Positions 5,904 to 61,401 of a stretch of DNA of 63,688 nucleotides are shown here, piece after piece. A program made the translations under genes and the position numbers. This stretch comes from Thermoanaerobaculia bacterium (GTDB lineage: Bacteria > Acidobacteriota > Thermoanaerobaculia > UBA5066 > Gp7-AA6): the NCBI GenBank assembly GCA_036505535.1, contig DASXTI010000097.1, positions 1-63,688 of the forward strand, read 5' to 3'. Numbering within the stretch: position 1 is the stretch's first letter; the number at the start of each line of letters is the position of its first letter. The notes below the pieces were generated by a model that was not told the origin of the DNA, searched no databases, and worked only from the letters and a program-made list of their open reading frames with translations.

Positions 5904-5989
5904 GGGCGGTAAGCGAAAGACGGTAGACGGTAGACGAAGGTCTGTCGCGCCTTCTCGTCTCCCGTCTTCCGTCTCCCGTCTTCCGTCCC
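5904..5989. repeat. heptamer-array hairpin H1 (GACGGTA / TCTTCCG units)
   Basis: Left arm 5904-5940 gggcggtaagcgaaagacggtagacggtagacgaagg. Right arm 5950-5989 ccttctcgtctcccgtcttccgtctcccgtcttccgtccc. Period 7. It fills the aldolase-tdh spacer and ends 2 nt before the tdh ATG. Confidence 0.9.
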
Positions 5990-5991
5990 GC

Positions 5992-7077
5992 ATGACCGCC
6001 GTCGTGAAGACGAAGCCGGCGCCGGGGCCTGAAGCGACCGAAGTGAAGAGCGTGCCGGTCCCCAGCCCGGGACAAGCCGAAGTCTTGATTCGGGTCCTGG
6101 CGACGGCCGTCTGCGGATCCGACAAGCACATCTATCAGTGGGACCCGTCGATGGCCGGCATGTTCGAGCCGCCGCGGATCTACGGACACGAGTTCTGCGG
6201 GGAAATCGTCGCATTCGGCCCGGGCGGCAAGCGTCCGCATCTGGAAGAAGGACAGTACGTCTCGGCGGAGATGCACGTGACCTGCGGCGCGTGCCGCCCC
6301 TGCCTCACGGGACGGCGCCACATCTGCGAGAACACGCGCATCCTCGGGGTCCACGGCGACGGCTGTTTCGCCCAGTACGTCGTCGTGCCGGCCTTCAACG
6401 TCGTGCCGCTCGATCGGGCGATGATCCCCCCGCGCGTCGGAGCATTTCTCGACGCGCTCGGCAACGCCGTCCACACCACGCAGGTCGCGGATCTCTCGGG
6501 CAAGTCCGTTGCCGTCCTCGGCTACGGGCCGATCGGCGCGATGTGCGCGGAGATCGCGCGCATCTCCGGCGCGGCTCGGATCGCGATCACCGAGGTCAAC
6601 TCGTACGCGGCGGCGCACGCGCGGCGCTGGGCAGGATCGCGCGGCCTTGCCCACGTTTCCGTGATCGAGCTGCCGCGCACGAAGGATCACGTTGCAAGCC
6701 TGCGAGAGGCGACCGGAGGCGGCGCCGACGTCGTCCTGGAGCTCTCGGGTGCCGAGAGCTCCATCAATTTGGGCCTGGCCGCGTCGCGCCGCGGGGCGAC
6801 CCTTTCTCTGCTGGGACTACCGCGCGAAAAGGCGGTCACGATCCGCGACTACACCAACGACCTCGTCTTCAAAGGGCTGACTCTCCATGCGATCATCGGA
6901 CGGCGTATCTTCGACTCATGGATAAAGATGATCGATCTCCTTCGCGCCGGGCTCGACGTCGAGGATCTCGTCACCAACGAGTTCGATGGTCTCGAAGACT
7001 TCCACGAAGCCATGAAGCTGCTCGACGACCGGCGAGCGATGAAGGTCGTGTTTTATCCGAATGGGAGACCGAAGTGA
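5992..7077 (+). CDS. tdh: L-threonine 3-dehydrogenase
   Basis: Zn-dependent ADH fold (ATAVCGSDKHIYQWD, GHEFCGEIV). Start moved to ATG 5992 (MTAVVKTKP). Lies in the same cluster as kbl. Confidence 0.85.
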   Translation: MTAVVKTKPAPGPEATEVKSVPVPSPGQAEVLIRVLATAVCGSDKHIYQWDPSMAGMFEPPRIYGHEFCGEIVAFGPGGKRPHLEEGQYVSAEMHVTCGACRPCLTGRRHICENTRILGVHGDGCFAQYVVVPAFNVVPLDRAMIPPRVGAFLDALGNAVHTTQVADLSGKSVAVLGYGPIGAMCAEIARISGAARIAITEVNSYAAAHARRWAGSRGLAHVSVIELPRTKDHVASLREATGGGADVVLELSGAESSINLGLAASRRGATLSLLGLPREKAVTIRDYTNDLVFKGLTLHAIIGRRIFDSWIKMIDLLRAGLDVEDLVTNEFDGLEDFHEAMKLLDDRRAMKVVFYPNGRPK

Positions 7078-7146
7078 TTTTAGATTTTAGATTTTAGATT
7101 TGGCTGCGCCGTAGGCCTTAGTAATCCAAAATCCAAAATCTAAAAT
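7077..7146. repeat. heptamer-array hairpin H2 (TTTAGAT / AATCCAA units)
   Basis: Left arm 7077-7103 attttagattttagattttagatttgg. Right arm 7123-7146 aatccaaaatccaaaatctaaaat. The tdh TGA stop is immediately upstream of, and partly within, the first unit. Confidence 0.9.
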
Positions 7147-7155
7147 GGAGCATTC

Positions 7156-7629
7156 ATGCCGACCAACAGACCGCCGAAGCCCGACGCGACGCAGGGCGAG
7201 CTGACCGAGCGGCGCATCGCCGAGTTCGCGCTCGAGGAGTCGCGCCTTTCCAACGTCGCCTACCGGTTCCAACTGATGCCGCGCGAGCGCGTCTGGAAGA
7301 ACTGGGATCGCACGGAGTTTGAGCCGAACGGCTACCGGATCCTCGGTGTTGCGGGGGTCTGCCTTCGCCGCGACGAGGTCGAACGGGCGCATCGCGGGGT
7401 GTCGCGCGCGCTCGAAGACCTCGACGACGTCCTATTCATCGTCGGGGAGCCGGCCGAGGCGATCGTGGTTCGCGGAGAGACCGGTACTTCCGAGATCGTG
7501 CGCCGCCCGACCGTTTGCGCCGAGATCATGGCCAAGAGCGCCGCCGCGTTCGATCGGGCCGTGGAGGCTCTCGCGGCCGCCTTCCCCGGCGATCGCGTCG
7601 CCGGGAGAATCCTTTCGGAGGAGAAGTAG
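7156..7629 (+). CDS. hypothetical protein between tdh and kbl
   Basis: 157-aa ORF; GGAG 6 nt upstream of the ATG. I recognise no family. Confidence 0.55.
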   Translation: MPTNRPPKPDATQGELTERRIAEFALEESRLSNVAYRFQLMPRERVWKNWDRTEFEPNGYRILGVAGVCLRRDEVERAHRGVSRALEDLDDVLFIVGEPAEAIVVRGETGTSEIVRRPTVCAEIMAKSAAAFDRAVEALAAAFPGDRVAGRILSEEK

Positions 7630-7675
7630 GGGCGGGGCTCGTCCCCGCCCGCGGGTCGCCTGGGGGCCGCCCTAC
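7626..7675 (+). repeat. GTAGGGGCGG...CCGCCCTAC palindromic element
   Basis: gtaggggcgg (7626-7635) pairs with gccgccctac (7666-7675). Inner hairpin ggggcgggg-ctcgt-ccccgccc. The TAG inside the element is the stop codon of the 7156..7629 gene. Confidence 0.85.
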
Positions 7676-7693
7676 GGAACGGAGTCAGACACC

Positions 7694-8872: not shown

Positions 8873-8874
8873 AA

Positions 8875-8986
8875 GAATTGCCGATTGGCGATTGGCGATT
8901 GGCGATTGGCGATTGGCGATTGGCGATTGGCGATTGGGATGGCTAAGTCTTCAATCGGCAATCTTCAATCGGCAATCGGCAATTTT
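8875..8986. repeat. heptamer-array hairpin H3 (GATTGGC / CGGCAAT units)
   Basis: Left arm 8875-8938 has about 9 units, 7 of them perfect GATTGGC. Right arm 8948-8986 tcttcaatcggcaatcttcaatcggcaatcggcaatttt. Lies between convergent kbl and the OPT gene. Confidence 0.95.
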
Positions 8987-8987
8987 C

Positions 8988-11006: not shown

Positions 11007-11084
11007 GCGACCTCCGTTTTAAGAGGTGGTGGTCAATCTGCTGGCGGGGGATTATATGCGGCGCGCCCGAATCAGACGAGGTTC

Positions 11085-11166
11085 GGGAAGCGGTAGGCGG
11101 GAAACGGTAAACGAGATTTCTGAAGGCCGCCTCGGCTTCCGTTTTCCGTCTTCCGGCTTCCGGCGG
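11085..11166. repeat. heptamer-array hairpin H4 (CGGTAAG-like / CTTCCGN units)
   Basis: Left arm 11085-11115 gggaagcggtaggcgggaaacggtaaacgag. Right arm 11136-11166 cttccgttttccgtcttccggcttccggcgg. Same unit family as H1. Confidence 0.85.
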
Positions 11167-11190
11167 CCCTCCGGGCCGGCTTCACACCCC

Positions 11191-11406
11191 TCACGTTCCT
11201 CCGAAACCGACGGTGACCTTGCCGGCCTCGAGGATGACGGGCACCTCGCGTCCGCCCGAGAGGCGGATCATCCGCGAAAGCTCTTCGTTGTCCTGTTTGA
11301 CGTTGATGTATTGGACCGAGTATTTCCGGCGCGCGTAGTCCTCACGGGCCGCGGTCGTATAGGGTCATGTGTCTTTGCCGAAGATCTCGACGCGCTTCTG
11401 CACCAT
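11191..11406 (-). CDS. glutaredoxin-like (NrdH/YruB-type) protein with in-frame TGA at the redox position; candidate selenoprotein, or else a pseudogene
   Basis: Not in the ORF track. ATG 11406 is preceded by GGAGG with a 4-nt spacer. Translation is MVQKRVEIFGKDT-[TGA 11365-11367]-PYTTAAREDYARRKYSVQYINVKQDNEELSRMIRLSGGREVPVILEAGKVTVGFGGT, with the stop at 11191-11193. The TGA replaces the first Cys of a CPYC-type motif. Confidence 0.55.
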
Positions 11407-11457
11407 ACGGCCTCCGCAAATCGCGATGATACGCCGGCGCGGCGCGGCTCGAATGCT

Positions 11458-12150
11458 ATGATTTTTCGAGAACACATGGTGAGGCTCGCCACTGCGCTCG
11501 TATTGAGGCTTCTGGCTTCACCGCCCGTCGGCGCCGGCACAGTTTCGGGCAAGGTCGCTCTGATCCAGAACGGTGTCCCGCGCACCGACGCTTCCAACGC
11601 CGTCGTTTGGATCGAGGGGGTGCACCAGGGCGGAATCGGCGCGATGAAGGGGGAGATGAAAAGCTCCTCGAAACGCTTCCTCCCCCGGGTCGTGGCCATC
11701 CCGAAGAACGCCACCGTCGACTTCCCCAACGCCGATCCGATCTACCACAACGTCTTCTCGGTCTCCGGCGCCAACCGCTTCGATCTCGGCCTCTACCGCA
11801 GCGGCGCCTCCAAGTCGAAGCGCTTCGAGGAGGCGGGCCTGGTACGCATCTACTGCAACATTCATCCCCAGATGGTTGGCTTCGTCATGGTCGTCGATTC
11901 CGACCTCGTCGCGATCACGGGTCCGGATGGCTCGTTCAAGTTCGACGGAGTGCCGCCCGGATCGCATGTCGTGAAGGCCTGGCACGAAGAGGGGACCGAA
12001 GTCGCGCATCCGGTCGCCGTCAAGTCCGGCGGGGACGCGCCGCTCGCGTTGCGCATCGACGTCTCGGGTTTCAAGCCCGAGCCGCACAAGAACAAGTACG
12101 GCAAGGAATACCCGCCGAAGGCGGGCGAATCGGACGATGAGCGCTACTGA
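11458..12150 (+). CDS. secreted cupredoxin-like protein with carboxypeptidase-regulatory-like C-terminal domain
   Basis: Start ATG 11458 (or 11476) followed by a signal peptide. Type-1 copper-like ligand pattern YHNVFS ... YCNIHPQM (H...C-x2-H-x2-M). C-terminal segment ITGPDGSFKFDGVPPGSHVVKAW. Confidence 0.7.
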   Translation: MIFREHMVRLATALVLRLLASPPVGAGTVSGKVALIQNGVPRTDASNAVVWIEGVHQGGIGAMKGEMKSSSKRFLPRVVAIPKNATVDFPNADPIYHNVFSVSGANRFDLGLYRSGASKSKRFEEAGLVRIYCNIHPQMVGFVMVVDSDLVAITGPDGSFKFDGVPPGSHVVKAWHEEGTEVAHPVAVKSGGDAPLALRIDVSGFKPEPHKNKYGKEYPPKAGESDDERY

Positions 12151-14269: not shown

Positions 14270-14361
14270 GAATCGCTGATTTGTGATTGGTGATTTGTGA
14301 TCAACGCGAAGAATTGGCTTGGACGCTCTAATCACAAATCACAAATCACAATTCACAAATT
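14270..14361. repeat. heptamer-array hairpin H5 (GATTTGT / ATCACAA units)
   Basis: Left arm 14270-14302 gaatcgctgatttgtgattggtgatttgtgatc. 26-nt loop. Right arm 14329-14361 taatcacaaatcacaaatcacaattcacaaatt. Confidence 0.95.
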
Positions 14362-17413: not shown

Positions 17414-18283
17414 ATGCGATCTCCCCGCCGCGTCGTCGCCGACTGGATCGTCCGCCGTCTCACGGAGCCGCGCAGGCGCTATCACCATTTCGTCTACAAC
17501 GTCCCCGAGAAGCTCAAGGCCACGATCCGGGCCGGCGACGTCCTGCTCGTCGACGGCGACCAGAGGATCTCGCAGGCCGTGAAGTATCTGACCATGTCGT
17601 CCTGGTCGCACAGCGCGCTCTACATCGGCGACGCGCTGCTGCGCCGCGACGCCGCGACCCGAGCCGACGTCCAGAGGCGGTTCGGGCGCGAGGCGAAACA
17701 CCTGATCGTGGAGGCGCTGGTCGAGAAGGGCGTCGTCGTCTCGCCCCTGATGAAGTACATCGACTACAACATCCGGATTTGCCGACCCGTGGGATTGAAG
17801 GCCGAGGATCTCGAGATCGTTCTCGACTACGTCATCGCACGGATCGGCTTACAATACGACCGGCGCAACTTCCTGGACCTCACCCGCTATAGTTTCCTGG
17901 ACCTCACGCGCTTTTTCCTCCCCTTTCAGATCATTCCGCAGGACCTGCGGGAGGACGCGCTTCATTTCGGCAGCGGCCGCGCGACCGAAACGATCTGTTC
18001 TTCGCTTCTGGCCGAAGCGTTCGGTCAGATCCGGTTTCCCATTCTGCCGGTTTCCGTGCGCCAGAAGCCGCGCACGCTCGGCGAAAAGCTTCGCCAGCAG
18101 ATCCTGGGCCGCCCGACGCGCCGCGCATACAGCGGCCTCCTGCGAGCGAGGCATCCGACCCTCTGCGTCCCGCGTGACTTCGACCTCTCCCCATACTTCG
18201 ACATCGTGAAGTTCAACGCACGCGAGATCGCCGCCTTCGATTACCGCCGGCTGACCTGGGAAGAGGTGAAGACGAGAGATTGA
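17414..18283 (+). CDS. YiiX-like permuted papain-fold (NlpC/P60 superfamily) protein
   Basis: 289 aa. The segment GDVLLVDGDQRISQAVKYLTMSSWSHSALYIG resembles the YiiX/lipo-like family. Assigned by motif memory only. Confidence 0.45.
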   Translation: MRSPRRVVADWIVRRLTEPRRRYHHFVYNVPEKLKATIRAGDVLLVDGDQRISQAVKYLTMSSWSHSALYIGDALLRRDAATRADVQRRFGREAKHLIVEALVEKGVVVSPLMKYIDYNIRICRPVGLKAEDLEIVLDYVIARIGLQYDRRNFLDLTRYSFLDLTRFFLPFQIIPQDLREDALHFGSGRATETICSSLLAEAFGQIRFPILPVSVRQKPRTLGEKLRQQILGRPTRRAYSGLLRARHPTLCVPRDFDLSPYFDIVKFNAREIAAFDYRRLTWEEVKTRD

Positions 18284-18355
18284 CGATTGGCAATTGACCG
18301 GGACTCACATCAATCGGCAATCTTCAATCGGCAATCGGCAATTTCACGATTCGGC
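18277..18355. repeat. heptamer-array hairpin H6 (GATTGAC/GATTGGC / CGGCAAT units)
   Basis: Left arm 18277-18299 agattgacgattggcaattgacc. Right arm 18308-18355. Positions 18310-18344 are identical to 8951-8985. Lies between convergent genes and contains both stop codons. Confidence 0.9.
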
Positions 18356-18755: not shown

Positions 18756-20054
18756 CTAAAAGCTGCCCGCGCTAACGACCGTGAACGCTTCCGGCCGTAC
18801 CCGACGCGCGAAGGCGGCGTCGGCCTGCTCCTTGGTGACGGCATCGACTTCGGCGGAGAAACGGTCCAGGTACGACACTCCGAAGCCGTAATAGATCGCG
18901 GAATCGAGCGCGTGGGCGATGCCGCCGTTGGAAGCCAAATCGACTTTGAAGCGCCCGACGCGGGAGCTCTTTTCCTCGGCGAGCTCCTTCTCGGTGATGC
19001 CGCTCTTCAGAAACGATCCGATCTCGTCTAAGGTGGAGGCGATCGCGGCATCGCGGCTCTCCGGCTTGACCGTCACGCTGACGACGAACGGTCCCGCCAC
19101 GTGGGTGGCCGAGAAGCTCGAGTGGATTCCGTAGGTCAAGCCTTCCGTGTCGCGCACGCGCACGCCGAGGCGAGAGGTCAGCGAGGATTGTCCCAGCGCC
19201 GAGTTCGCGAGGAAGCAGGCGATGTAGTCCGGATCGGTTCGCTTCAGGTCCGCCGGCTGCGCCAGGATGACGTCCGCGCTCGCCTTGTCGGGCATGACGA
19301 CCGTCTCCTCGCCCGGCGCGGGCGCGGGCACCCCCACTTCCGAAATCGACGGCGAGGGACCGCTCTTCCACGTCTCCAGGTTCTTCTCGAGCCGATCGAG
19401 AACCCGCTCGGACTCGACGTCGCCGACGACGACGAGAATCAGGGAGCCGGCGCCATAGTGGGCCTCGTGGAAGGCGGCGAGCTCCTCGCGGCGGAGCGCC
19501 TCGACGCGCGCGATGCGTTCCTCCCCCGTGAGACGATGCAGCGGATGCGCGTTCGGATAGATCCGGCGCATCGCCTGCTCGTACGCCCGGATGGAGGTCT
19601 GATCCTGCTGCTGGCGGATGGCTCCGACCAGGCGTTTCTTCTCCTTGTCGAGCTCTTCCTCCGGAAAGACCGGTGTCTGGAGCACTTCCACGAGCGTGTC
19701 GAGGAGTAAGTCCGTATCGCGGGACAAGGCCGCCCCGGACACGTCCACTCCGACCGGGTCGGAGGCGTCGGACACGAACGATAGGCTTGCCGCCCGGCTC
19801 TCCAGGTCCTCGGCGAGCTGGAGCTTCGTGCGCCGCGTGGTCCCCTTCATCAGCTCGCCGGCGGTCAAAGAGGCGATGAGCCGGCGCTCGGACGGGGCGT
19901 ACAGTCGGCCGGCGTTCAAGGAGCCAGAGATCGCCAGCGTCGGATTGAAGTGATTCTCGACGACGTAGAGGCGCGCGCCGTTCTCGAGCGCTCGGTGGGC
20001 GACGATCTCGACGAACGGGAGCCGGCGGCGCACGGGTGTCGAGATCCCTGTCAT
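18756..20054 (-). CDS. M16-family peptidase, non-catalytic subunit type
   Basis: Start ATG 20054 overlaps the upstream stop (ATGA). Insulinase fold without an HxxEH motif. Confidence 0.8.
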   Translation of the reverse strand: MTGISTPVRRRLPFVEIVAHRALENGARLYVVENHFNPTLAISGSLNAGRLYAPSERRLIASLTAGELMKGTTRRTKLQLAEDLESRAASLSFVSDASDPVGVDVSGAALSRDTDLLLDTLVEVLQTPVFPEEELDKEKKRLVGAIRQQQDQTSIRAYEQAMRRIYPNAHPLHRLTGEERIARVEALRREELAAFHEAHYGAGSLILVVVGDVESERVLDRLEKNLETWKSGPSPSISEVGVPAPAPGEETVVMPDKASADVILAQPADLKRTDPDYIACFLANSALGQSSLTSRLGVRVRDTEGLTYGIHSSFSATHVAGPFVVSVTVKPESRDAAIASTLDEIGSFLKSGITEKELAEEKSSRVGRFKVDLASNGGIAHALDSAIYYGFGVSYLDRFSAEVDAVTKEQADAAFARRVRPEAFTVVSAGSF

Positions 20055-21439: not shown

Positions 21440-22252
21440 CTACCTTCCGCCCGCGATGTCCTCGGCGCCGTCGACGCCGATCACGTTGCCGCTGACCCAC
21501 CCCACGGAGTCCCCGCACAGCGCCACGAGCGCGTTGGCGACGTCCGAGGGAGAAGTCAGCCGGCCCGCCGGGTGCATCGCGAGGACGCGCGCGATCATCG
21601 CCTCGTTGCCCGGAATCTTCCGAAGCGCCGGCGTATCCGTCACACCGGCGCGCAGCGCGTTGACCGCGACCTTGTGCGGCGCGAGCTCAACGGCCAGTTG
21701 TCGAACGTACGACTCGAGCGCCGACTTGGCGGCGGAGACGGCGCCGTAGGCAGGCCAGACGATGTGGTCGCCCGCGGAGGTCATGGCAAAAATATGGGCG
21801 CCGGGGGCGAGCAGCTTGCCAAAGAAGAGATCTTGAGTCCAGTAGACCAGCGAATTCGCCATGACGTCCAGAGTCATCTCGATCTGAGGCTTCGCGATGG
21901 CCTTCTCCCGCGGTTCGGCGAAGAAAGGCTTGAGCGTGCCGAAAGCGAGCGAGTGAAGAAGGACCGATACGCGCGACTCGGGCGGTTCGCTCCCGCACGC
22001 CTGCCGGATCGCCGCGACGACCTCGGCGCGCTTGGCGTCGTCGGCCGCGTTGACGTTGAAGAACTCGGCGTGGCGCCCGGACGCTCGGATCTCGCCCACG
22101 ATGCGGTCGACGTTGGGCTGAGTGGCCTTGCGGTCGAGGTGCACGCCAAAGACGTTCCAGCCCGCGTTCGCGAGAGCGAGGGAGCAAGCCTCCCCAAATC
22201 CCGAGGAGGCACCCAGGACCAGAGCCCAGCGGGTGCGCGTTTCGGCTGCCAA
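21440..22252 (-). CDS. SDR-family oxidoreductase (FabG/FabL-like)
   Basis: ALVLGASSGFGEA cofactor motif and YGAVSAAKSAL catalytic Y-x3-K. The track ORF extends to 22363 through repeat H8. I prefer TTG 22252 (M-AAETRTRWALVLG), but the start is uncertain. Confidence 0.65.
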   Translation of the reverse strand: MAAETRTRWALVLGASSGFGEACSLALANAGWNVFGVHLDRKATQPNVDRIVGEIRASGRHAEFFNVNAADDAKRAEVVAAIRQACGSEPPESRVSVLLHSLAFGTLKPFFAEPREKAIAKPQIEMTLDVMANSLVYWTQDLFFGKLLAPGAHIFAMTSAGDHIVWPAYGAVSAAKSALESYVRQLAVELAPHKVAVNALRAGVTDTPALRKIPGNEAMIARVLAMHPAGRLTSPSDVANALVALCGDSVGWVSGNVIGVDGAEDIAGGR

Positions 22253-22284
22253 AGCGGCGGGAATCTTAGCAGGAGTCAGGAGAA

Positions 22285-39443: not shown

Positions 39444-39528
<85 letters not shown>

Positions 39529-44713: not shown

Positions 44714-44736
<23 letters not shown>

Positions 44737-49569: not shown

Positions 49570-49631
49570 AAGGTTTCTGGTTTCTCGTTTCTGGTTTCTC
49601 GTTGGGAACCAGAAACCAGAGACCAAGAACC
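49570..49631. repeat. heptamer-array hairpin H19 (GGTTTCT / ACCAGAR units)
   Basis: aaggtttctggtttctcgtttctggtttctcgttggg pairs with aaccagaaaccagagaccaagaacc, with no loop. Ends 9 nt before the merR-like ATG. Confidence 0.95.
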
Positions 49632-49640: not shown

Positions 49641-50051
49641 ATGGCTCGTGATCCCGCAACGCTGACGATCTCGCAGGTCGCGCGGCGCACCGGCATTCCG
49701 GTCACCACCCTGCGCTTCTACGAGCGGGAGCTGCCAGGACTCTTTCGTATTCGCAAGACCTCGGGCGGGCATCGCCGTTACGGTGAGACGGAGGTGGGGC
49801 GGTTTGTCACGGTGCGGCGGCTGACGCACGTCGAAGGGCTGGGCTTGGCTCGGGTCCGCCGCGTCCTGACTCCGCGCGGAGAGGGGGAGGCGATTCGCGA
49901 CGAGCTCGATTCCTTACGCGAGGCGCATACCGCGGAAATCGAGGCGCTTCACGCCCTGACGCGCCGGGTGGCCGAGCTCGAAGGGCGCCTCGCCGCGCTC
50001 GAGTCTGCCCCGCCGCGCCGGCGGCGCTGGCTCAAGAGGCGAGAGCCCTGA
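49641..50051 (+). CDS. MerR-family transcriptional regulator
   Basis: HTH motif LTISQVARRTGIPVTTLRFYERE followed by a C-terminal coiled coil. Confidence 0.8.
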   Translation: MARDPATLTISQVARRTGIPVTTLRFYERELPGLFRIRKTSGGHRRYGETEVGRFVTVRRLTHVEGLGLARVRRVLTPRGEGEAIRDELDSLREAHTAEIEALHALTRRVAELEGRLAALESAPPRRRRWLKRREP

Positions 50052-50123
50052 GCCAAGAGGATCAATGAAAGGGAATTTTTCCGCTACCGCGGCGCTTGCG
50101 GAACGCTTGAGGAGAGACGAGCG

Positions 50124-50708: not shown

Positions 50709-50763
50709 AGAAGATTGCCGATTGGCGATTGGCGATTGGCGATTGGCGATTTGTGATTGGTGG
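50709..50763. repeat. single-arm heptamer array H20 (GATTGGC x5 then GATTTGT/GATTGGT)
   Basis: agaagattgccgattggcgattggcgattggcgattggcgatttgtgattggtgg. No C-rich partner downstream. Confidence 0.9.
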
Positions 50764-54515: not shown

Positions 54516-54558
54516 GGGCGGCAGTTCTTTGAGCCCGGCCGGATCTTCCGCGTTCCGG

Positions 54559-54677
54559 CCGCATCCAGAGTGGGTGAGGGACCGGCCCGATGACCCCACG
54601 GCAACCGGGATCGCGCGTCGCGGCGCGACTCGACAGGTGCCAATTCCGGAATTCTCCGTTCGGAGAAGAAGATGGGG
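54559..54677 (+). promoter_or_regulatory. SAM-I (S-box) riboswitch
   Basis: CCGCAUCCAGAGUGGGUGAGGGACCGGCCCGAUGACCCCACGGCAACC...AGGUGCCAAUUCCGGA...GAAGAUGGGG matches the conserved S-box core (AUC.AGAG.GG..GAGGGA..GGCCC.AUGA..CC.GCAACC ... GGUGC.AA.UCC ... AGAUG). Confidence 0.85.
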
Positions 54678-54707
54678 GGTGACGCGACGAGGTCCTCGCG
54701 GGCCCGC

Positions 54708-54732
54708 GCCTCTCGCCTCGAGAGGCTTTTTT
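54708..54732 (+). terminator. intrinsic terminator (riboswitch expression platform)
   Basis: gcctctcg-cct-cgagaggc stem followed by TTTTTT, 10 nt before the ATG at 54742. Confidence 0.8.
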
Positions 54733-54741: not shown

Positions 54742-56619
54742 ATGAAGAAAGACTTTCGAAAGACGATCGCCGAGGAGGTCCTGCTGGCCGATGGCGCCAT
54801 CGGGACCCTGCTGACTTCGCGCGGCGCCTCGCCGGAGCAGGCGCGGTCGCCGCTGAACCTCTCCGATCCGGAATCCGTCAGGGAAGTCCACGACGACTAC
54901 CTCGAGGCGGGAGCGCGGATCTTGACGACCAACACCTGGGACGCCAACCGCGTCAAGCTCACCATCCACGAGTGGGCCGACTCGCTCGAGAAGATCAATC
55001 GGGAAGGGGTGCGCCTGGCGAAGGAGGCGGCGGCCGGCGAGATCGTCTATGTCGCCGGATCGATCGGGCCGCTCGGCGCGCTCGTGCGCCCGTACGGATC
55101 GCTTCATCTTTCTCAGGTGCGCGAGATCTTCGAAGAGCAGGCTCGCGCTCTTTTGGAGTCGGGAGTCGATCTGATTCTTCTCGAAACCTTCGGTAGCCTT
55201 CTCGAAGCGGCCGAGGCGGTCCGGGCCGTGCGTGGTTTGTCTTCCGAGGTCCCGATCGTCGCCGAGATGACCTTTCTCGCCGACGGACGCACCGCTTTCG
55301 GAGAAGCGGTGTCGCACGCGCTCTCGACTCTGGCTCTGGCGGGAGCGGATGCCGTCGGCATGAACTGCACGCTGGGACCGCAGGAGACCCACGACCTCTT
55401 CACCCGGCTTCCCGCGACGATCTCGGCACCGCTGTCCGTCATGCCCAACGCCGGCTATCCGAGCCTCGTGCACGGCCGCAACGTCTATCTGTCCTCGCCC
55501 GACTACCTGCGGGGGTACGCCGCCGCATTCGTCGAGGCCGGCGCCGCGATCGTGGGCGGCTGCTGCGGCACCACGCCCGAGCACATTCGCGCCATGGCGC
55601 GCGAGGTCGCCGGCAAGAAGAGGGCCCGCGTCTCCCGTCCCGTGTCGGTCGTCGTCGAAGCCGAGGTCGAGCACGTCGGAGAGACCCCGATCGAGACCTC
55701 GCGTTTGAAGCGCAAGCTCTCCGGCGCGGACGAGCTCGTGATCACGAGCGAAGTCGAGCCTCCCAAGGGAGCCGACTCCTCCGCCGCCATCGAGGGGGCG
55801 CGGCTGCTCAAGTCCTGTGGCGTCGACGCGATCAACGTGACGGATAACCCGATGGCCCGTCTGCGGATGTCCTCGATAGCCGTCGCAGCACTGATCCAGC
55901 GGGAAGTGGGCCTGGATGCCGTCGTGCAAATCACCACTCGGGACCGCAACGTGCTCGGCCTTCAGTCCGACTTGCTCGGCGCCGCCGGCCTCGGCGTCAA
56001 GGCGATCCTTTGCCTCGGCGGGGATCCGCTGAAGATCGGCGACTATCCTCAGGCCAAACAGGTCTCCGAGGTCGACGTCCTCGGTTTGCTGCGGATGGCC
56101 AAAGGGCTCAATGCCGGAGCGGACCTCGCGGGCAACGCGATCGGAGCGCCAACACGCTTCGCCATCGCGTGTGCGGCCAATCCGGCGGCGGCGGATCAGG
56201 AGGTCGAGCTCTCCAAGCTCCGCGCCAAGATCGAGGCCGGCGCGAGCTTCGCGCAGACGCAGCCCGTCTACGATCTGGAGGCCCTCGCGCGGTTTCTCGA
56301 GCGCCCCGAAACGCGAGCGATCCCGATCCTCGTCGGGCTGATTCCGCTCCTTTCGCTCAAGCAGACCCTCTTCTTCGCCAACGAAGTCCCGGGCGTCGTC
56401 GTGCCGCCCGCCATTCAGGAGCGCATGCGCCGCGCGGCCGAGCGCGGGCCCGATCACGAGAAGGCCGAAGGTCTCGCGATCGCGCGGGAGCTCGCGGTGG
56501 GGATCGCGAAGGTCGCGCGCGGCATCCACATCATGCCGATGGGCCGGTACAAGACGGCCGGCGCAATCCTCGAGGCCGTCCCCCGGCAGCCCGCGCCGGG
56601 GAGACGCGCGCCGGCGTAG
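54742..56619 (+). CDS. bifunctional homocysteine S-methyltransferase / 5,10-methylenetetrahydrofolate reductase (YitJ-like)
   Basis: Start ATG 54742 (MKKDFRKTIAEEVLLADGAIGT). N-terminal Hcy-binding domain with GGCCGTTPEHI. C-terminal MTHFR-like domain (EVEPPKG ... TDNPMA ... QTQPVYD). Confidence 0.85.
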   Translation: MKKDFRKTIAEEVLLADGAIGTLLTSRGASPEQARSPLNLSDPESVREVHDDYLEAGARILTTNTWDANRVKLTIHEWADSLEKINREGVRLAKEAAAGEIVYVAGSIGPLGALVRPYGSLHLSQVREIFEEQARALLESGVDLILLETFGSLLEAAEAVRAVRGLSSEVPIVAEMTFLADGRTAFGEAVSHALSTLALAGADAVGMNCTLGPQETHDLFTRLPATISAPLSVMPNAGYPSLVHGRNVYLSSPDYLRGYAAAFVEAGAAIVGGCCGTTPEHIRAMAREVAGKKRARVSRPVSVVVEAEVEHVGETPIETSRLKRKLSGADELVITSEVEPPKGADSSAAIEGARLLKSCGVDAINVTDNPMARLRMSSIAVAALIQREVGLDAVVQITTRDRNVLGLQSDLLGAAGLGVKAILCLGGDPLKIGDYPQAKQVSEVDVLGLLRMAKGLNAGADLAGNAIGAPTRFAIACAANPAAADQEVELSKLRAKIEAGASFAQTQPVYDLEALARFLERPETRAIPILVGLIPLLSLKQTLFFANEVPGVVVPPAIQERMRRAAERGPDHEKAEGLAIARELAVGIAKVARGIHIMPMGRYKTAGAILEAVPRQPAPGRRAPA

Positions 56620-58084: not shown

Positions 58085-59188
58085 TTGCGCCTGAGGCACT
58101 CGCGGAAAGAGAATGCGGCCGTGGGTCGCCGGGGAGCCTTCAAGGATCGACCTCTTTGGCGGCGCCTCCAAACCATTCATCACGAGATCAAGGAAGGGCG
58201 CCATCCCAACACCAGTTCGCTCGCGGCCTCGCTCGGCGTGTCTTCGAAGACCGTTCAGCGCGACATCGACTACCTGCGTGACGAGCTCGGTGCGCCGATC
58301 GAATTCCACCGGGAAGAAAACGGCTATGCCTACGCGCGCGACGACTACGTCCTCCCGTTTCTTCCGGTCGACGGCCAGGATCTCTTCTCGATCGGGGTCG
58401 CGGCTCAGGTGCTGGCGCTGCTCGGCGGGACGCCGCTGGCGCGAAGTCTTCGATCCTGCTACGAGAGACTCGCTCGTCTGATGCCTCCGGCCGTGCGCCT
58501 GCGCCCGGAAATCGTGCGCGAAAAGCTCACGCTGCGGGCGGCGGCATTTCGGCCGGTGCGCGAGGAGATCTGGCAGGCGGTCTCCGAGTCGCTGCAGAAG
58601 GGGATCGCCCTTTCGATCTGCTACCGGCGCCCGGGCGAAGGGCCGGGAGATCCGCGGACTATTCGCCCGTACGCCTTCGTTCTGGCCGGCCGGGATTGGA
58701 TGGTGCTCGCCGAAGATCAGACGCAGGGGCAGATCAAGAATTTCTACCTCGCCCGCATCCAGAGCGCCCGCTCGACGAAAGAGCGCTATGCGATCCCCAG
58801 GGACTTCGATGCCGAATCCTTCTTCCGCAATACTTTCGGGCTCTTCGTCGGTAAAGGCCGGGCATTTCGCTTTCGAGTGCGGTTTTCTCCGGAGATCTCC
58901 GACGAGGTCCGGGAAATGGTCTGGCACCCGCGGCAGAAGATCGAGACCGGCCCCAACGGCGAGGCAATCCTGGAGCTGCCGGCCGAGTCGCTGCGGGAGG
59001 CCCGCCGATTCATCCTCGCGTATGGACGCCACGCGACGGCGTTGTCTCCGCCTGAGCTCGTCGCCGATCTGCGCGACGAGATTGCCGAGCTCACGCGCCA
59101 ATATGGCCCGCGCAAAACCCGGGCTGGCGAAAGACCCAAGGCCTCCGGAGGCAAGAGGAACAAGTCCGCCGCCCCTTTGCGTTCCTGA
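58085..59188 (+). CDS. HTH + WYL-domain transcriptional regulator
   Basis: HTH segment SSLAASLGVSSKTVQRDIDYLRDELGAPIEF. Central WYL-like segment and C-terminal WCX-like region. Start is TTG 58085 or GTG 58121. Confidence 0.75.
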   Translation: MRLRHSRKENAAVGRRGAFKDRPLWRRLQTIHHEIKEGRHPNTSSLAASLGVSSKTVQRDIDYLRDELGAPIEFHREENGYAYARDDYVLPFLPVDGQDLFSIGVAAQVLALLGGTPLARSLRSCYERLARLMPPAVRLRPEIVREKLTLRAAAFRPVREEIWQAVSESLQKGIALSICYRRPGEGPGDPRTIRPYAFVLAGRDWMVLAEDQTQGQIKNFYLARIQSARSTKERYAIPRDFDAESFFRNTFGLFVGKGRAFRFRVRFSPEISDEVREMVWHPRQKIETGPNGEAILELPAESLREARRFILAYGRHATALSPPELVADLRDEIAELTRQYGPRKTRAGERPKASGGKRNKSAAPLRS

Positions 59189-59195
59189 GTCTGCG

Positions 59196-59768
59196 GTGTC
59201 TCGATTTGCGATCGTCACGGTTCTCCTCCTCATCGGCGCGGCAAGCTGCGGTCCGCCCAGCGTGCGTCCGGTCTCCTATGCCGATCCGGAGATTCCCTGT
59301 CCCGGCGGCCATCTCGTCTGGGATCTCTCGATCGTCGATCAACGTGCTTCCCGGGAAGGAGGAGACAAGACGATCTCCGCCGTGCGCGATGGCATCCAGA
59401 AATCCTTTCCCGGATGCCGGTGGGCGGCGCCCGGAGAGTCCGGCACCCCGACGATCGCGATCGAGATCCACCGCTTCGCTTCGATCTTCGATGGCGGATC
59501 CTGGGAGGCCGCCGTAGAGTGGACCGTATCCGCCCGGGATGCCGGAGGAAGAAGGGTCACCGAGTTCGAGGCGAACGAAGAAGTTTCCAGACCGAACTAT
59601 CGGGGCACAGACAACGAGAAGGAGTCCTTGAGTGAAGCGTTTCGGCGCGCGCTGGAACGAACGGTCAAGGGACTCGCCGGAATGTCGAGGTTCGGCGCCC
59701 TTCGTCCTCGCGAGGGGACGCCAGGCGGCGAGGCAACTCTGCCGTTCTTCGAGGCCCACCCTATCTAA
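59196..59768 (+). CDS. lipoprotein of unknown function
   Basis: GTG 59196, 7 nt after the WYL gene stop. Lipobox LLIGAASC. Confidence 0.5.
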   Translation: MSRFAIVTVLLLIGAASCGPPSVRPVSYADPEIPCPGGHLVWDLSIVDQRASREGGDKTISAVRDGIQKSFPGCRWAAPGESGTPTIAIEIHRFASIFDGGSWEAAVEWTVSARDAGGRRVTEFEANEEVSRPNYRGTDNEKESLSEAFRRALERTVKGLAGMSRFGALRPREGTPGGEATLPFFEAHPI

Positions 59769-59863
59769 GCTAGTGAGAAGGCATAGCTTATCTCCCGCAA
59801 GGCTTCCTTTGCCCTGCCCCGGGAGATGGAACGGATCTCGCAGTAAGAGGAATCGGAGGATTT

Positions 59864-60424
59864 ATGAAAAGGCTCTTGTTGGCCGTCACCATCGCGGGAT
59901 TGACCTTAACCCCGGCGCTCTTCGCCGCATCCCCGGACAAGGTCTACGACATTGCCGCGGTTCTCTCGGGAACCTTCGAGGGCTCCACGCCGGGTAATCA
60001 CCTCACCCTCGATTTGCGCCCGGTCTCGATTGACCCTGCGCATCCTCACGACCTTTTCCTTCAGGTGACCGGAAAGTTCGAGAACGACAACATCCGACAG
60101 CAGGGGGTCGTTCGGCTCGAGCAACAGGGCCAGGACATCTACTTCACCTACATCCCGCACTTCAATCCGGCGGTCACCGCCCTTTCCAACGATGCCGGAA
60201 GATTCACGGAGAGCGAGCTTTCCTCGGCCTGCAGTTTCGTGCTGAAGCCGAGAGGGGATGGATTCTTCGGAGACACGCTCGGCTCGGCGACCTGCGCGAG
60301 GGCGATGCGCGGGGCGATCGGAAAGTGGACCGTGGAGCTCGAGCCCGGAAACTTGCGCGTCCGCAACACGGACAGCGGAGAGACGCTCCGTTTCCGGCAG
60401 GTCGGGAAGGCAGAGAAGAAGTAG
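59864..60424 (+). CDS. secreted protein, possibly CpcT/CpeT-like lipocalin fold
   Basis: Signal peptide MKRLLLAVTIAGLTLTPALFA. The family guess comes from overall pattern only (LSGTFEG ... IYFTYIPH ... C..V...G.GF.G......C). Confidence 0.45.
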   Translation: MKRLLLAVTIAGLTLTPALFAASPDKVYDIAAVLSGTFEGSTPGNHLTLDLRPVSIDPAHPHDLFLQVTGKFENDNIRQQGVVRLEQQGQDIYFTYIPHFNPAVTALSNDAGRFTESELSSACSFVLKPRGDGFFGDTLGSATCARAMRGAIGKWTVELEPGNLRVRNTDSGETLRFRQVGKAEKK

Positions 60425-60495
60425 AGGCGATTCGGCCAGCGGGAGGAACAGGAGGTAGGTAATTTTTCGCTAGCGGGAGGAGACAAGCCCCTCCC

Positions 60496-61272
60496 CTACT
60501 CCCCCTCCGGCGGCAAAAACTTTTTCGCCACGGCCTTTACCGGCTCGGAGAAGTCCCCCTTGAGAATCCAACGGAGGAAGCCCGGCTCGTCCCGGCTCAT
60601 CTCTCGTAGCGTCCGTCCTCGATTCTTTCCGAAGTTGACGGTCGGCTCGCCGTTGACGAGACGGATTCGTCCTTCGGGGTCGAGATCCTGGTCGATCCCC
60701 GCGCAGAAGAGATCGTGCAGATCGGAAACCGAGCGCGGCAGCTCGGCGTAGCGCTGAAGCTGCCCCACCAGGACGCGCAGGGTCATCTCCGCATCCGCGA
60801 GGGCGCCGTGCGCTCCGTCATGCTCGCTCTGGCAGTAGAACCGGGCGGCCGCGGACAGATGTCGCGGCTCTCGGGAGAAGAAGATGCGCTGGGCGTCGAC
60901 GAGCCTCCGCTCGGACACCTCGAACGGTATGCCGGCCCGCAGGAACTCGACCCGCAGAACCGGCAAGTCGAAGCCGGCGATGTTGTAGCCGGCGAGGTCG
61001 CAACCGGCGAGAAACGCCGCGAGCTCCGCGGCGACGTCGCGAAAGCACGGCTCGCCGGTCACATCGGCGTCGGAGATCCCATGAATCGCAGTCGAAGCCG
61101 GCGGGATCGGGATGCCGGGATTCATCCGCCGCACCCACTGCTCCCGGCGCCCGTCCGGATGAATCTTCAGACAGGCGATCTCGATGATCCGGTCGGCCCG
61201 GGGATTCGTTCCCGTCGTTTCGGTGTCGAAAACGACGAGGGGACGATCGAGAAGCAGGAGCTGTTCCAACAC
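60496..61272 (-). CDS. DEDDh 3'-5' exonuclease (DnaQ-like) with DUF3820-like C-terminal domain
   Basis: Exo motifs VVFDTETTG, GYNIAGFDLPVL and HGALADAEMT. C-terminal FGKNRGRTLREMSRDEPGFLRWIL. Confidence 0.8.
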   Translation of the reverse strand: MLEQLLLLDRPLVVFDTETTGTNPRADRIIEIACLKIHPDGRREQWVRRMNPGIPIPPASTAIHGISDADVTGEPCFRDVAAELAAFLAGCDLAGYNIAGFDLPVLRVEFLRAGIPFEVSERRLVDAQRIFFSREPRHLSAAARFYCQSEHDGAHGALADAEMTLRVLVGQLQRYAELPRSVSDLHDLFCAGIDQDLDPEGRIRLVNGEPTVNFGKNRGRTLREMSRDEPGFLRWILKGDFSEPVKAVAKKFLPPEGE

Positions 61273-61294
61273 TGAGAGAAAATCCTACTCTGAA

Positions 61295-61401
61295 GAATCG
61301 GTGATTTGTGACTGGTGATTCGTGATTTGTGATCGAGGCAACCCGATCACTCTTCAGTTGTGATCACAAATCACAAATCTCCAATCCCAATTATCTTCAA
61401 T
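61295..61401. repeat. heptamer-array hairpin H21 (GATTTGT/GATTCGT / ATCACAA units)
   Basis: Left arm 61295-61335 gaatcggtgatttgtgactggtgattcgtgatttgtgatcg. Right arm 61344-61401 contains the cls stop. Confidence 0.9.

Follow-up and report, generated by a model that had tools for sequence, protein, structure and literature searches.

Tandem heptanucleotide arrays forming G-first hairpins at gene boundaries of a Thermoanaerobaculia contig

A contig of 63,688 nt from an uncultured Thermoanaerobaculia (Acidobacteriota) metagenome, analysed here over its whole length (the window), carries tandem 7-nt arrays at many of its gene boundaries, which raises the question of what these arrays are and whether they represent a new system. 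Tandem Repeats Finder (TRF) and our own autocorrelation scan both recovered the arrays at the places originally predicted. At a looser threshold, the autocorrelation scan of the window gave 37 period-7 runs vs 2–5 runs for each of periods 5, 6, 8, 9 and 10; at a stricter one, it gave 15 period-7 runs and none for any other period from 4 to 12, in line with the original prediction of a period fixed at 7 with many unit families. The runs cluster into 22 loci, i.e., the 21 predicted and a weak C/T-rich array at 1482–1516, with a total of 1,644 nt (approximately 2.6% of the whole window, or 28% of the non-coding sequence in it). Seventeen loci are two-armed, one is self-complementary (37659–37696, AGTCGAC) and three are single-armed (21371, 24107 and 50713), in addition to the weak array (1482); this matches the predicted division exactly once the degenerate partner arms at 11085–11115 and 18277–18299 are counted. 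The loci are listed below (no strand assigned unless stated; detected by TRF and autocorrelation unless one is named).

1482–1516: weak single-armed array of C/T-rich, GACTYCT-like heptamers, flanked by the M18 aminopeptidase gene (48–1469, -) and the rhodanese/MBL gene (1515–2924, -); outside the range first described.
5918–5987: two-armed hairpin, AGACGGT x2.7 (5918–5936) and CGTCTYC x5 (5951–5987), occupying the whole co-directional spacer from an aldolase-like gene (stop 5896) to a Zn-ADH gene (start 5992).
7076–7146: two-armed hairpin, GATTTTA x3.7 and AATCCAA/AATCTAA x3.4; the first unit overlaps the ADH stop codon (TGA, 7075–7077), and directly 3' lie a GGAG motif and the start codon (ATG) of the following gene.
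8877–8983: two-armed hairpin, (GATTGGC)x8 and CAATCGG/CAATCTT x4.6 (autocorrelation; folding z -7.8), occupying the convergent spacer between an aminotransferase gene (stop 8872) and an OPT transporter gene (stop 8988).
11085–11164: two-armed degenerate hairpin, GGAAGCG/GTAGGCG/GGAAACG (G-rich arm, about 11085–11115) and CCGTTTT/CCGTCTT/CCGGCTT (11137–11164), where the OPT gene (-) and a 374-aa gene (+) diverge.
14277–14360: two-armed hairpin, TGATTTG/TGATTGG and AATCACA, between a Ser/Thr kinase gene (stop 14266) and a porin-like gene (start 14360).
18277–18342: two-armed hairpin, GATTGAC/GATTGGC/AATTGAC (18277–18299) and CAATCGG/CAATCTT (18311–18342), in a convergent spacer, with the C92 peptidase stop inside the short arm.
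21371–21401, strand +: single arm, (GATTTTG)x4.4, adjoining or within the doubtful N-terminus of an M16 peptidase gene (-), 38 nt from the adh_short stop.
22287–22385: two-armed hairpin, GATTGGT/GATTTGT and CAATCAC/CAATCTC, with a small central hairpin, in the spacer from which adh_short (-) and a PMT glycosyltransferase gene (+) diverge.
24107–24131, strand -: single arm, (GATTTTG/GATTTTA)x3.6, abutting the stop of a VWA gene (24130, -); nearby, at about 24068–24095, is an AT-rich palindrome unrelated to the array.
28290–28408: two-armed hairpin, GATTGWC x3.7 and (GGCAATC/ACSAATC)x11 (autocorrelation), occupying a convergent spacer with stops at 28285 and 28417.
33408–33512: two-armed hairpin, GTTTGTA/GTCTGTA x4.7 and ACAGACC/ACAAACC x8 (TRF), between PIG-L (BshB-like) and GT4 (BshA-like) genes, likely inside a bacillithiol operon.
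35262–35341: two-armed hairpin, GATTTGT and CAATCAC, convergent, with the ends of the UPF0029 and adenosine deaminase genes both extending into the arms.
36293–36410: two-armed hairpin, GAATGGA x4.6 and ATTCTCA x4.9, in the divergent spacer between the adenosine deaminase gene (-) and an RDD-family gene (+).
37659–37696: self-complementary array, AGTCGAC/AGTCGGG x4.4 (H14 in the original prediction), flanked by a DUF4097 gene and a 114-aa gene.
38388–38488: two-armed hairpin, GTAGTCT x3 with GTGGTTT x5, and AACTACA/GACTACA/AACTCCA x5.6 (z -5.0), occupying the convergent spacer between YidD (stop 38402) and a 276-aa gene (stop 38489).
39375–39434: two-armed hairpin, GATTGSC x4.9 and CAATCWT x3.6, 9 nt off the 3' end of tRNA-Leu(gag) (39444–39528, -).
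40730–40802: two-armed hairpin, GTCAACA/GTCGACA and GACTGTT/GACTCTC (z -4.2), occupying the 77-nt pgk-tpiA spacer within the conserved pgk-tpiA-secG operon.
44718–44805: two-armed hairpin, GATTGCC/GATTGAW and CAATCGS; the IF-2B-like gene stops within the first arm and tsaD starts 7 nt 3' of the second.
49572–49625: two-armed hairpin, GGTTTCT x4.6 and AACCAGA x2.7 (z -7.5), between a 124-aa gene and a MerR gene, with pairing continuing into the flanks.
50713–50762, strand +: single arm, (GATTGGC/GATTTGT)x7, beginning 4 nt past the stop of the first redoxin gene.
61301–61390: two-armed hairpin, GTGATTT and ATCACAA, between an RNase T-like exonuclease gene (-) and a PLD-like gene (-).

With genes mapped from JGI calls and a self-trained codon model, all 22 loci lie at gene or tRNA boundaries, one of them abutting tRNA-Leu, and several overlap gene termini; no array was found in any well-supported gene interior of the window, and the predicted restriction to boundaries was thus borne out. 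Four arrays contain stop codons, namely those of the IF-2B-like (44734–44736), UPF0029 (35275–35277), YidD (38400–38402) and C92 peptidase (18281–18283) genes, and three overlap doubtful annotated start regions. The arrays run close up to coding sequence, at -19 to +21 nt from a stop codon and 0 to 17 nt from a start codon. With regard to spacer type, arrays are present in 6 of 8 convergent, 12 of 38 co-directional and 2–3 of 9 divergent spacers, and most array-free co-directional spacers are shorter than 30 nt.

The paired-array architecture was confirmed at the 17 two-armed loci, and so was the claim that the G-rich arm always comes 5'. G exceeded C in the 5' arm and C exceeded G in the 3' arm at all 15 tabulated loci, and two further loci are likewise G-first (17/17; two-sided binomial p ~1.5e-5). 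Since T exceeded A in the 5' arm at only 12 of the 15, the invariant is the G/C skew rather than a G-rich and T-rich composition. A similar bias was observed at loci of many phyla (34 G-first vs 6 C-first pairs) and in viral contigs (25 vs 4). Stems show a periodic pattern of six pairs and one mismatch, with unit variants that are specific to one arm, and five of six hairpins tested were far more stable than shuffled sequence (z -2.8 to -7.8). No sense-strand preference was seen when G-U pairs and folding energies were compared between sense and antisense.

Comparison with relatives, including the comparison of unit numbers at orthologous spacers suggested originally, showed that the arrays are lineage-specific, fast-turning insertions or expansions in otherwise tiny spacers. 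A single polymorphic array was seen: contig L001 has exactly one GATTGGC unit fewer at 8877–8937, in surrounding DNA that is 99.9% identical. At syntenic positions, array-poor relatives (L005, L131 and L129) have spacers of 0–30 nt where the window and L007 bear hairpins of 70–160 nt, and the hairpins of these two at shared spacers are built from different units. The spacers concerned are pgk/tpiA, IF2B/tsaD, tsaD/lepA, pgk/ggt and yidD/next gene, some of which sit within conserved operons. Array density among relatives was 1–11 loci per 21.8 kb, compared with 22 per 63.7 kb in the window. The redoxin spacer carries a single-arm GATTNNN array in the window and in four relatives (five genomes), array-poor ones included, and the unit families GATTTGT, GATTTTG, TTGTGAA and GACGGKA recur at non-orthologous spacers of different genomes.

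The reading that we favour, and consider somewhat probable, is that these are heptanucleotide simple-sequence-repeat arrays, made by slippage, kept only between genes and forming long imperfect hairpins once transcribed. Array length changes in 7-nt steps, arrays survive only where a 7-nt indel leaves reading frames intact, and the arms are homogenised separately, hence the stems with about six paired bases and one mismatch per unit. Strand slippage in a 7-nt register would give rise to the arrays and resize them, and either intrastrand template switching or selection for pairing may account for the second, inverted arm. The transcript of a two-armed locus would fold into a long imperfect hairpin reaching from just past one stop codon to just short of the next start, a likely barrier to 3' exonucleases and read-through; between co-directional genes, it would sequester the downstream initiation region, which could be opened by a ribosome as it finishes translating the upstream gene (translational coupling). 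The G-rich strand appears to point, in its 5' to 3' sense, away from the ORF closest to it. This orientation may bear the mark of the mechanism that makes the arrays, or it may act as a selective filter, under which mRNA would stay poor in G ahead of start codons and rich in G behind stop codons.

Slippage alone accounts for neither the period of 7, nor the inverted second arm, nor the polarity, and selection on the sense transcript left no sign in G-U pairs, folding energies or post-hairpin T-richness. The recurrence of unit families at non-orthologous spacers is not predicted by purely local slippage, and the retention of the single-arm redoxin array in five genomes hints at sequence-level selection, which the slippage model does not predict either.

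An unlikely but still credible alternative is that the genome uses the hairpins as its intrinsic terminators of transcription, often in both directions, with the heptamer stems being incidental. Their frequency in convergent spacers (6/8), their very high predicted stability and the A-rich 5' and T-rich 3' flanks of the GATTG-type loci at 8877, 28290 and 39375 (GAAGAATTG ... CAATTTTCCT) would fit, and canonical terminator-like sites are not commoner than in shuffled sequence, so that something else might terminate. However, the 8-nt tails contain 2.8 T in the direction in which a gene ends vs 3.1 in the other; U-tails are therefore unlinked to gene direction, a general terminator role is not supported, and the earlier view that the arrays are not simply terminators stands. 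Moreover, many hairpins lie within conserved operons (pgk-tpiA, IF2B-tsaD, bshB-bshA), at junctions where the spacers of array-poor relatives are just 0–13 nt, so no ancestral terminator existed there; 2–3 loci occupy divergent spacers, and a normal terminator with a GC stem and U7 is in use at the organism's SAM riboswitch.

Slightly more doubtful is the possibility that the arrays are lattices for a single-strand nucleic-acid-binding protein with a 7-nt footprint, e.g., a cold-shock-domain protein, whose binding to the first-transcribed G/U-rich arm would decide whether the hairpin forms and thereby regulate read-through or translation. Bacillus CspB is reported to bind to heptamer repeats, one protein per heptamer, in the summary given by PMC4679880. 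A lattice would also suit a period constant at 7 while the unit sequence changes across loci and phyla, a G-rich arm that emerges first from whichever strand, the conserved single-arm redoxin array and the limited unit repertoire recurring at non-orthologous sites. Nevertheless, the protein is hypothetical, no such gene was found in the window by Pfam scans, the units are very diverse, and fast gain and loss between close relatives is ill-suited to regulatory sites. The polarity rule also extends to cyanobacteria, which, to our knowledge, lack CspA-type proteins.

We regard as improbable that the arrays are mobile palindromes akin to REP/BIME elements or MITEs that a transposase, e.g., a RAYT, has dispersed. 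They are dispersed, extragenic, palindromic and inserted relative to array-poor relatives, and they share unit families at non-orthologous sites of different genomes; in addition, a toxin-antitoxin pair is inserted beside the IF2B/tsaD array in L130, and a rearrangement breakpoint falls at the 8877 array in the strain variant L003. Yet they have no shared full-length consensus, terminal inverted repeats or target-site duplications, every locus is a tandem array with its own unit, and lengths differ in steps of a full unit. Pfam scans of 40 window proteins detected neither a transposase nor a RAYT-like domain, and Rfam gave no match.

G-quadruplex or i-motif elements, as proposed for the G-rich heptamers of Xanthomonas and Nostoc, agree with the window arrays in class, architecture and their G-rich 5' arm (PMC4692102) but are a very improbable explanation here: GGG is nearly absent from the units (GATTGGC, GATTTGT, GATTTTG, GTAGTCT, GGTTTCT, GAATGGA), so four G-tracts are not available and quadruplexes cannot explain the arrays, which are 3–11 units long and not centred on four. 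Artefacts of short-read metagenome assembly were a concern raised originally; repeats can mislead assemblers, and contigs frequently end in such arrays according to a passage of PMC4679880. Such artefacts can be practically dismissed, as assemblies made independently from three samples (L001–L004, L128) give the same array sequences to the base except for one clean 7-nt unit, and like arrays are present both in relatives, on contigs of 2–4.5 Mb, and in isolate genomes from other phyla.

The window arrays have known counterparts. In its summary, PMC4679880 credits Mrazek 2007 with the over-representation of heptamers between bacterial genes; it also relates his proposal of 7-nt slippage, with 7 nt matching a polymerase footprint, and indels in 7-nt steps that distinguish Cyanothece strains. 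In Xanthomonas, Rehm et al. 2015 (PMC4692102) described 70–75 convergent pairs of heptamer arrays per genome, in which a plus-strand G-rich array precedes a minus-strand G-rich array, the same G-first polarity as in the window; these arrays lie near the 5'-neighbouring ORF and differ in length between species, and the class, the convergent pairing and the 5'-ORF proximity were reported for both Xanthomonas and Nostoc. We observed the two-array architecture directly in Lysobacter, Nostoc, Pirellulaceae and other Acidobacteriota loci. The comparison with cyanobacterial STRRs drawn in the original prediction was apt; we place the window arrays in one class with the STRRs, the GGGAATC repeats of Xanthomonas and the GGGGATT repeats of Nostoc. 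While the predicted architecture, period, polarity, placement and non-terminator view hold, the arrays fall in an already reported bacterial heptamer-repeat class, with convergent pairs already described, and are therefore not the undescribed system proposed. What is new here is the lineage (Thermoanaerobaculia), the very high density and units without G-tracts.

Tandem Repeats Finder recovered period-7 arrays at every place named in the original prediction, and the constant period of seven claimed there was also evident by autocorrelation, which returned 37 period-7 runs versus 2–5 each for periods 5, 6, 8, 9 and 10. With a stricter threshold, 15 period-7 runs were retained versus 0 for any other period from 4 to 12. 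Grouping of the runs yielded 22 loci, i.e., the 21 loci of the prediction plus a weak array at 1482-1516, and array coverage amounted to 1,644 nt, around 28% of the non-coding DNA of the window according to our own gene map. Degenerate partner arms were found at 11085-11115 and 18277-18299, in two loci that first seemed single-armed, and with both of them counted, the predicted tally of 17 two-armed loci (two inverted arrays forming a hairpin), one self-complementary locus and three single arms was exact. The predicted G-first polarity, with the G-rich arm 5' and the C-rich arm 3', also held, as G exceeded C in the 5' arm of 17/17 two-armed loci. T exceeded A in the 5' arm of only 12/15 loci; since this relation fails in three of 15 loci and the G/C relation in none, it is the G/C skew that is invariant.

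The units observed in the window (GATTGGC, GATTTGT, GATTTTG, GTAGTCT, GGTTTCT, GAATGGA, AGACGGT and AGTCGAC) harbor no G3 tracts. They belong to at least nine unrelated families, and no flank-to-flank sequence is common to all copies. An assembly artefact was ruled out, because contigs from three separate JGI samples matched base for base, with the exception of one clean 7-nt difference.

By its LepA protein, this metagenomic window is nearest to MAGs that bear the name Thermoanaerobaculia bacterium (Acidobacteriota). The position of the arrays with respect to genes was determined on a map composed of the JGI gene calls on overlapping contigs and a codon model trained on those calls, with a Pfam check. 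In line with the boundary-only placement originally proposed, 22/22 loci were located at gene or tRNA boundaries and none in the interior of a supported gene. Arrays occupied 6 of the 8 convergent spacers, 12 of the 38 co-directional ones and 2–3 of the 9 divergent ones, the other co-directional spacers being mostly shorter than 30 nt. The spacer was usually filled by the array, with the first arm starting between -19 and +21 nt from the stop codon and the second one ending 0–17 nt 5' of the next start codon; four stop codons were inside arrays. Single G-rich arms were closer to the ORF on their 5' side in all three window cases, in any ORF orientation, and in about 10 of 12 cases when those of the relatives were included (hand tabulation). 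In the genes at 21440-22363, 20051-21433, 35321-36340 and 11026-12150, start codons taken from JGI or from the longest ORF were inside or upstream of arrays; translation probably begins 3' of the arrays in these genes, so that start-site calling was misled by the repeats. In practical terms, array hairpins confuse both gene-start calling and contig assembly in metagenomes of this kind.

Several neighborhoods in the window deserve a separate mention. An array hairpin (33408-33512) lies within a likely bacillithiol biosynthesis cluster (31145-34641), between the second and the third of the following genes:

31145-32692, BshC-like gene
32682-33404, PIG-L/BshB-like gene
33514-34641, GT4/BshA-like gene

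A tRNA-Leu(gag) gene (39444-39528, minus strand) was found between secG and a gene for a 276-aa protein, with an array (39375-39434) that begins 9 nt past its 3' end; beside this tRNA gene, the syntenic relative L007 carries a different single-arm array (ACAATTC) and the relative L005 none. The region 58085-62641, comprising an HTH-WYL-WCX regulator (58085-59188), two ORFs that match no Pfam family, an RNase T-like exonuclease (60496-61272, minus strand) and a PLD-like protein (61397-62641, minus strand), could be a defence-type neighborhood. Outside the arrays, the window differed from the near-identical contig L128 at 50037-50065 by a 1-nt indel and clustered differences at the 3' end of a MerR-family gene, whose reading frame ends at 50051 in the window and at 50069 (window coordinates) in L128.

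The predicted folds of the two-armed loci consisted of around six pairs followed by one mismatch, a pattern recurring every 7 nt, in stems 20–45 pairs long. Unit variants were arm-specific (e.g., GATTGGC in the 5' arm opposite GGCAATC/TTCAATC in the 3' arm), and pairing was often perfect at the outermost units. Such stems with arm-specific variants are the expected product of slippage that homogenises the arms independently. Of six RNA hairpins tested, five were predicted to be far more stable than their shuffled counterparts (z -2.8 to -7.8). Unit degeneracy within arms, analyzed for a gradient from old outer to new inner units with the break-repair origin discussed below in mind, revealed higher-order patterns and no clear gradient. 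Small hairpins were also present in the 'loops' of some window loci (22287, 36293). In the locus of a Lysobacter MAG (L021, 4503-4666), the arms CGGGATT and CGAATCC surround a short GC-rich stem-loop with a T-rich stretch after it, and this center looks like an ordinary terminator embedded mid-hairpin. Long-range pairing between the single arms at 21371 (GATTTTG) and 24107 (CAAAATC), 2.7 kb apart, was discarded, as each of them abuts its own ORF like other single arms. Adjoining the latter, and directly 3' of the stop codon of a PMT glycosyltransferase gene, an AT-rich near-perfect palindrome with a stem of around 12 bp (AGATATATAAGTA/TACTTATGTATCT, 24068-24095) was observed in this 65% GC genome.

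The comparison with six syntenic loci from related genomes revealed a rapidly changing landscape. Array density was 1–3 loci per 21.8 kb in the relatives L129, L005, L131 and L130, 11 per 21.8 kb in L007, and 22 per 63.7 kb in the window. Five spacers that are tiny in the array-poor L005 contained a hairpin of 70–160 nt in the window and/or L007, with units differing between genomes:

pgk to tpiA: 11 nt in L005, array hairpin in the window and/or L007
yidD to the next gene: 6 nt in L005, array hairpin in the window and/or L007
IF2B to tsaD: overlapping genes in L005, array hairpin in the window and/or L007
tsaD to lepA: 27 nt in L005, array hairpin in the window and/or L007
pgk to ggt: 20 nt in L005, array hairpin in the window and/or L007

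These tiny spacers show that the arrays are recent, lineage-specific insertions or expansions and not inherited terminators; some of them are situated within conserved operons. No remnants of the ancestral spacer were recognised in the hairpin loops when these were compared with the array-poor relatives. At the IF2B-tsaD spacer, the window and L007 harbor unrelated arrays, and in L130 (8097-8911) a GACGGGA/GACGGTA hairpin, whose units are of the family seen at 5918-5987 in the window, directly precedes an inserted PhdYeFM-type antitoxin gene pair; this spacer may be an insertion hot spot.

The orthologous spacers of the relatives differed in unit sequence and length, and unit-number polymorphism, the comparison proposed in the original prediction, was found in one within-species case: the GATTGGC array of the hairpin at 8877-8983, in the convergent spacer between an aminotransferase and an OPT transporter gene, has 7 units in the overlapping contig L001 and 8 in the window and in L002. 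Allele diversity of this array was judged from three or four contigs. A metagenome scan with its left flank as query yielded no further alleles, in a collection that evidently lacks the JGI contigs carrying that sequence. In another near-identical contig, L003, positions 1-515 depart from the window (before 8992) exactly at the 3' edge of this array, with no array and a different neighboring gene, and L003 and the window are 99.9% identical across the OPT gene. This divergence could stem from a chimeric assembly or from a rearrangement between strains that had its breakpoint at the array. A single-arm GATTNNN array was kept in the spacer between two redoxin genes in the window, L005, L006, L007 and L131, and the GATTTGT, GATTTTG, GATTGGT, TTGTGAA and GACGGKA families recurred at non-orthologous spacers of different genomes.

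A survey with the GATT-seeded pattern (GATTNNN)4GATT, applied to one genome per species, extended these features to other lineages. The matches listed include Acidobacteriota, Cyanobacteria, Bacteroidota, Planctomycetota, Verrucomicrobiota, Desulfobacterota, Chloroflexota, Xanthomonadaceae and Patescibacteria. Among them, period 7 was dominant (at least 339 runs versus 0–41 for other periods), and at least 34 inverted pairs were G-first versus 6 with the opposite, C-first polarity (p = 8e-6). GATT-core arrays were also common among the matches listed for IMG/VR contigs, giant-virus MAGs included; here, G-first pairs accounted for 25 of 29 and C-first pairs for 4, in contigs (L132-L250) that may be viruses, prophages or host fragments. 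The Lysobacter, Nostoc and Pirellulaceae examples that were fetched resemble the window loci, those of Lysobacter and Nostoc being paired hairpins of G-first polarity. The presence of this polarity across phyla and in viral contigs points to a general cause at the nucleic-acid level, away from a lineage-specific element.

The arrays show all three features of the heptanucleotide LSSR/STRR class, i.e., an excess of head-to-tail 7-nt units, a non-coding location and whole-unit variation. The proposal that they represent an undescribed system was not sustained, given that convergent heptamer pairs with identical polarity are already on record for Xanthomonas (PMC4692102). Instead, the window very probably contains a new, particularly dense instance of a known, unexplained heptamer class. 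With regard to its origin, we lean towards a joint explanation, in which slippage in a 7-nt register would generate the arrays, these would be tolerated between genes only, and each arm would be homogenised on its own. Once transcribed, a two-armed locus would adopt a very stable, long imperfect hairpin, at whose base the nucleotides just 3' of one stop codon would pair with those just 5' of the next start codon. Judging from its structure, this hairpin should hinder 3' exonucleases and read-through, and in co-directional pairs, downstream initiation should depend on its opening. The G-first rule may be due to a selective filter that keeps leaders G-poor and trailers G-rich, or else be the mark of the generating process.

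The kept redoxin array, the recurring units and the divergence of L003 point beyond purely local slippage. An alternative that we regard as improbable is that the arrays are not passive slippage products and result from a single process, conserved across phyla, in which a strand polarity is built in. In one version, the arrays would be in-register lattices for a single-strand binder that covers 7 nt; its loading on the G/U-rich arm, which is transcribed first, would gate the formation of the hairpin. In the other, the arrays would be scars of break repair: G-rich 7-nt repeats would be added to the two 3' ends at an intergenic break before these are joined, which, by analogy with fused telomeres, would yield a head-to-head (G-rich)n-(C-rich)n layout. 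If true, either version would explain by one and the same mechanism the constant period of seven and the course of the G-rich strand, which in bacteria of many phyla and in viral contigs leads away from the flanking ORFs in the 5'-to-3' direction. The syntenic sisters constitute a natural experiment: their array density ranges from about 1 to 11 loci per 22 kb and several have megabase contigs, so whole-genome comparison could reveal the gene or mutational regime that drives the arrays. Besides the lineage of the window, the 4.46-Mb contig_25364 of ERZ25039533 is array-rich, and GCA_038224325.1, contig_18256 (4.28 Mb) and a 141-kb ENA contig are array-poor.

A role as intrinsic (Rho-independent) terminators was not supported, as the arrays lack a directional U-tract and have long stems with periodic mismatches. 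Tails downstream of gene ends contained 2.8 T per 8 nt versus 3.1 in the opposite direction, canonical terminator-like sites at gene ends were as numerous as in shuffled sequence, and the terminator scan picked up no locus whole, flagging two short sub-stems within 37659-37696 and 40730-40802. A gene for a homocysteine S-methyltransferase fused to MTHFR (54742-56619) is preceded by a SAM riboswitch (54558-54678, plus strand; Rfam RF00162, 66 bits) with a canonical terminator of GC-stem and U7 (54708-54726) after it, which shows that this organism uses ordinary intrinsic terminators. No Rfam family matched the arrays. Selection on the sense transcript was not apparent either, as neither the G-U versus A-C asymmetry nor the sense versus antisense folding energy revealed a sense-strand preference. 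Rho avoidance was judged insufficient as the cause of the polarity, because G-first also holds in cyanobacterial loci and cyanobacteria, to our knowledge, have no Rho.

REP/BIME elements of enterobacteria are dispersed imperfect palindromes between genes, often transcribed in operons and found at convergent gene ends, which can stabilise upstream mRNA; they share a conserved sequence of around 35 nt, are mobilised by RAYT and have no internal period. The window arrays, in contrast, have no common sequence, with at least nine unrelated unit families in place of a single conserved imperfect-palindrome consensus, and no RAYT in view: no transposase, the IS200/IS605-like TnpA domain included, was found (Pfam) in 40 proteins of the 64-kb window. 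Quadruplex formation cannot apply in the absence of G3 tracts, and the window units thus do not qualify as the quadruplex-type GGGAATC/GGGGAYT unit (criterion of Rehm et al. 2015). MITEs were dismissed, as copies are alike in the 7-nt unit at most and there are no terminal inverted repeats, duplicated flanks or near-identical copies, and CRISPR arrays likewise, since the units are 7 nt, contiguous and spacerless versus repeats of 24–48 nt with unique spacers.

The cause and role of intergenic repeats of exactly seven bases have been in question since STRR were reported in 1990 and genomes were surveyed in 2007. The STRR, reportedly defined by Mazel and coworkers in 1990 as short tandemly repeated repetitive heptamers, resemble the window arrays in that several heptamer families coexist per genome and in being tandem, mostly intergenic and variable in copy number. 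They differ in lineage and in having few fixed sequences per genome, and we know of no paired inverted arrays or polarity rule in their definition. Base composition is about 41% GC in STRR cyanobacteria versus 65% in the window. Among heterocystous cyanobacteria, STRR heptamers were described for Calothrix PCC 7601 (cited in PMC4692102).

The TAACTGA direct repeats of Beggiatoaceae, cyanobacteria and Bacteroidetes, patchy in distribution, show 7-nt-step indels between strains, and cold-shock proteins were suggested as binders of one heptamer each (MacGregor 2015; PMC4679880). They share with the window arrays intergenic tandem 7-nt units abutting start or stop codons and whole-unit indels between strains, and differ in having one dominant unit, mostly in 2–6 copies directly upstream of start codons, with 169 direct sets versus one inverted set in the Guaymas filament (PMC4679880). 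According to the summary of Mrazek 2007 in the same paper, heptanucleotides outnumber the other classes of long SSR in the majority of prokaryotic genomes, and slippage was proposed to be favored by a polymerase footprint of 7 nt. In Geobacter metallireducens, heptamers (GGACCGG, MTYCTGA) repeated four or five times in tandem form multicopy elements that carry an annotation as putative regulatory sites (Aklujkar et al. 2009; PMC2700814). Unlike the window arrays, these have a fixed sequence and copy number and are also found inside genes, and the account of them in PMC2700814 describes no paired hairpin. Our literature search found no description of such heptamer repeats in Acidobacteria.

The closest likeness is to the GGGAATC repeats of Xanthomonas and the GGGGA(C/T)T repeats of Nostoc, which are likewise intergenic tandem heptamers in G-first convergent pairs with proximity to the 5' ORF. 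Arrays of these repeats have 2–26 units and are distributed across the genome (Rehm et al. 2015; PMC4692102). In Xanthomonas campestris, 186 GGGAATC arrays were reported, about 90% of them intergenic, and 70–75 times per genome two arrays form a convergent inverted pair. They are near the 5' ORF, stop-codon overlap included, and scarce between divergent genes; at a given spacer, their length and sequence differ among close species. No function was found for them (PMC4692102). The window differs from both in its phylum, Acidobacteriota, in the absence of G3-4 tracts, in the coexistence of at least nine unit families versus one dominant unit, and in arrays that usually fill the whole spacer. It has one locus per around 3 kb versus around 27 kb in Xanthomonas (our own estimate, taking 186 arrays and around 5 Mb of genome). 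The full architecture of period 7, inverted pairs, G-first polarity and ORF-hugging therefore occurs with units incapable of forming G-quadruplexes, which removes the leading structural explanation for the Xanthomonas and Nostoc repeats.
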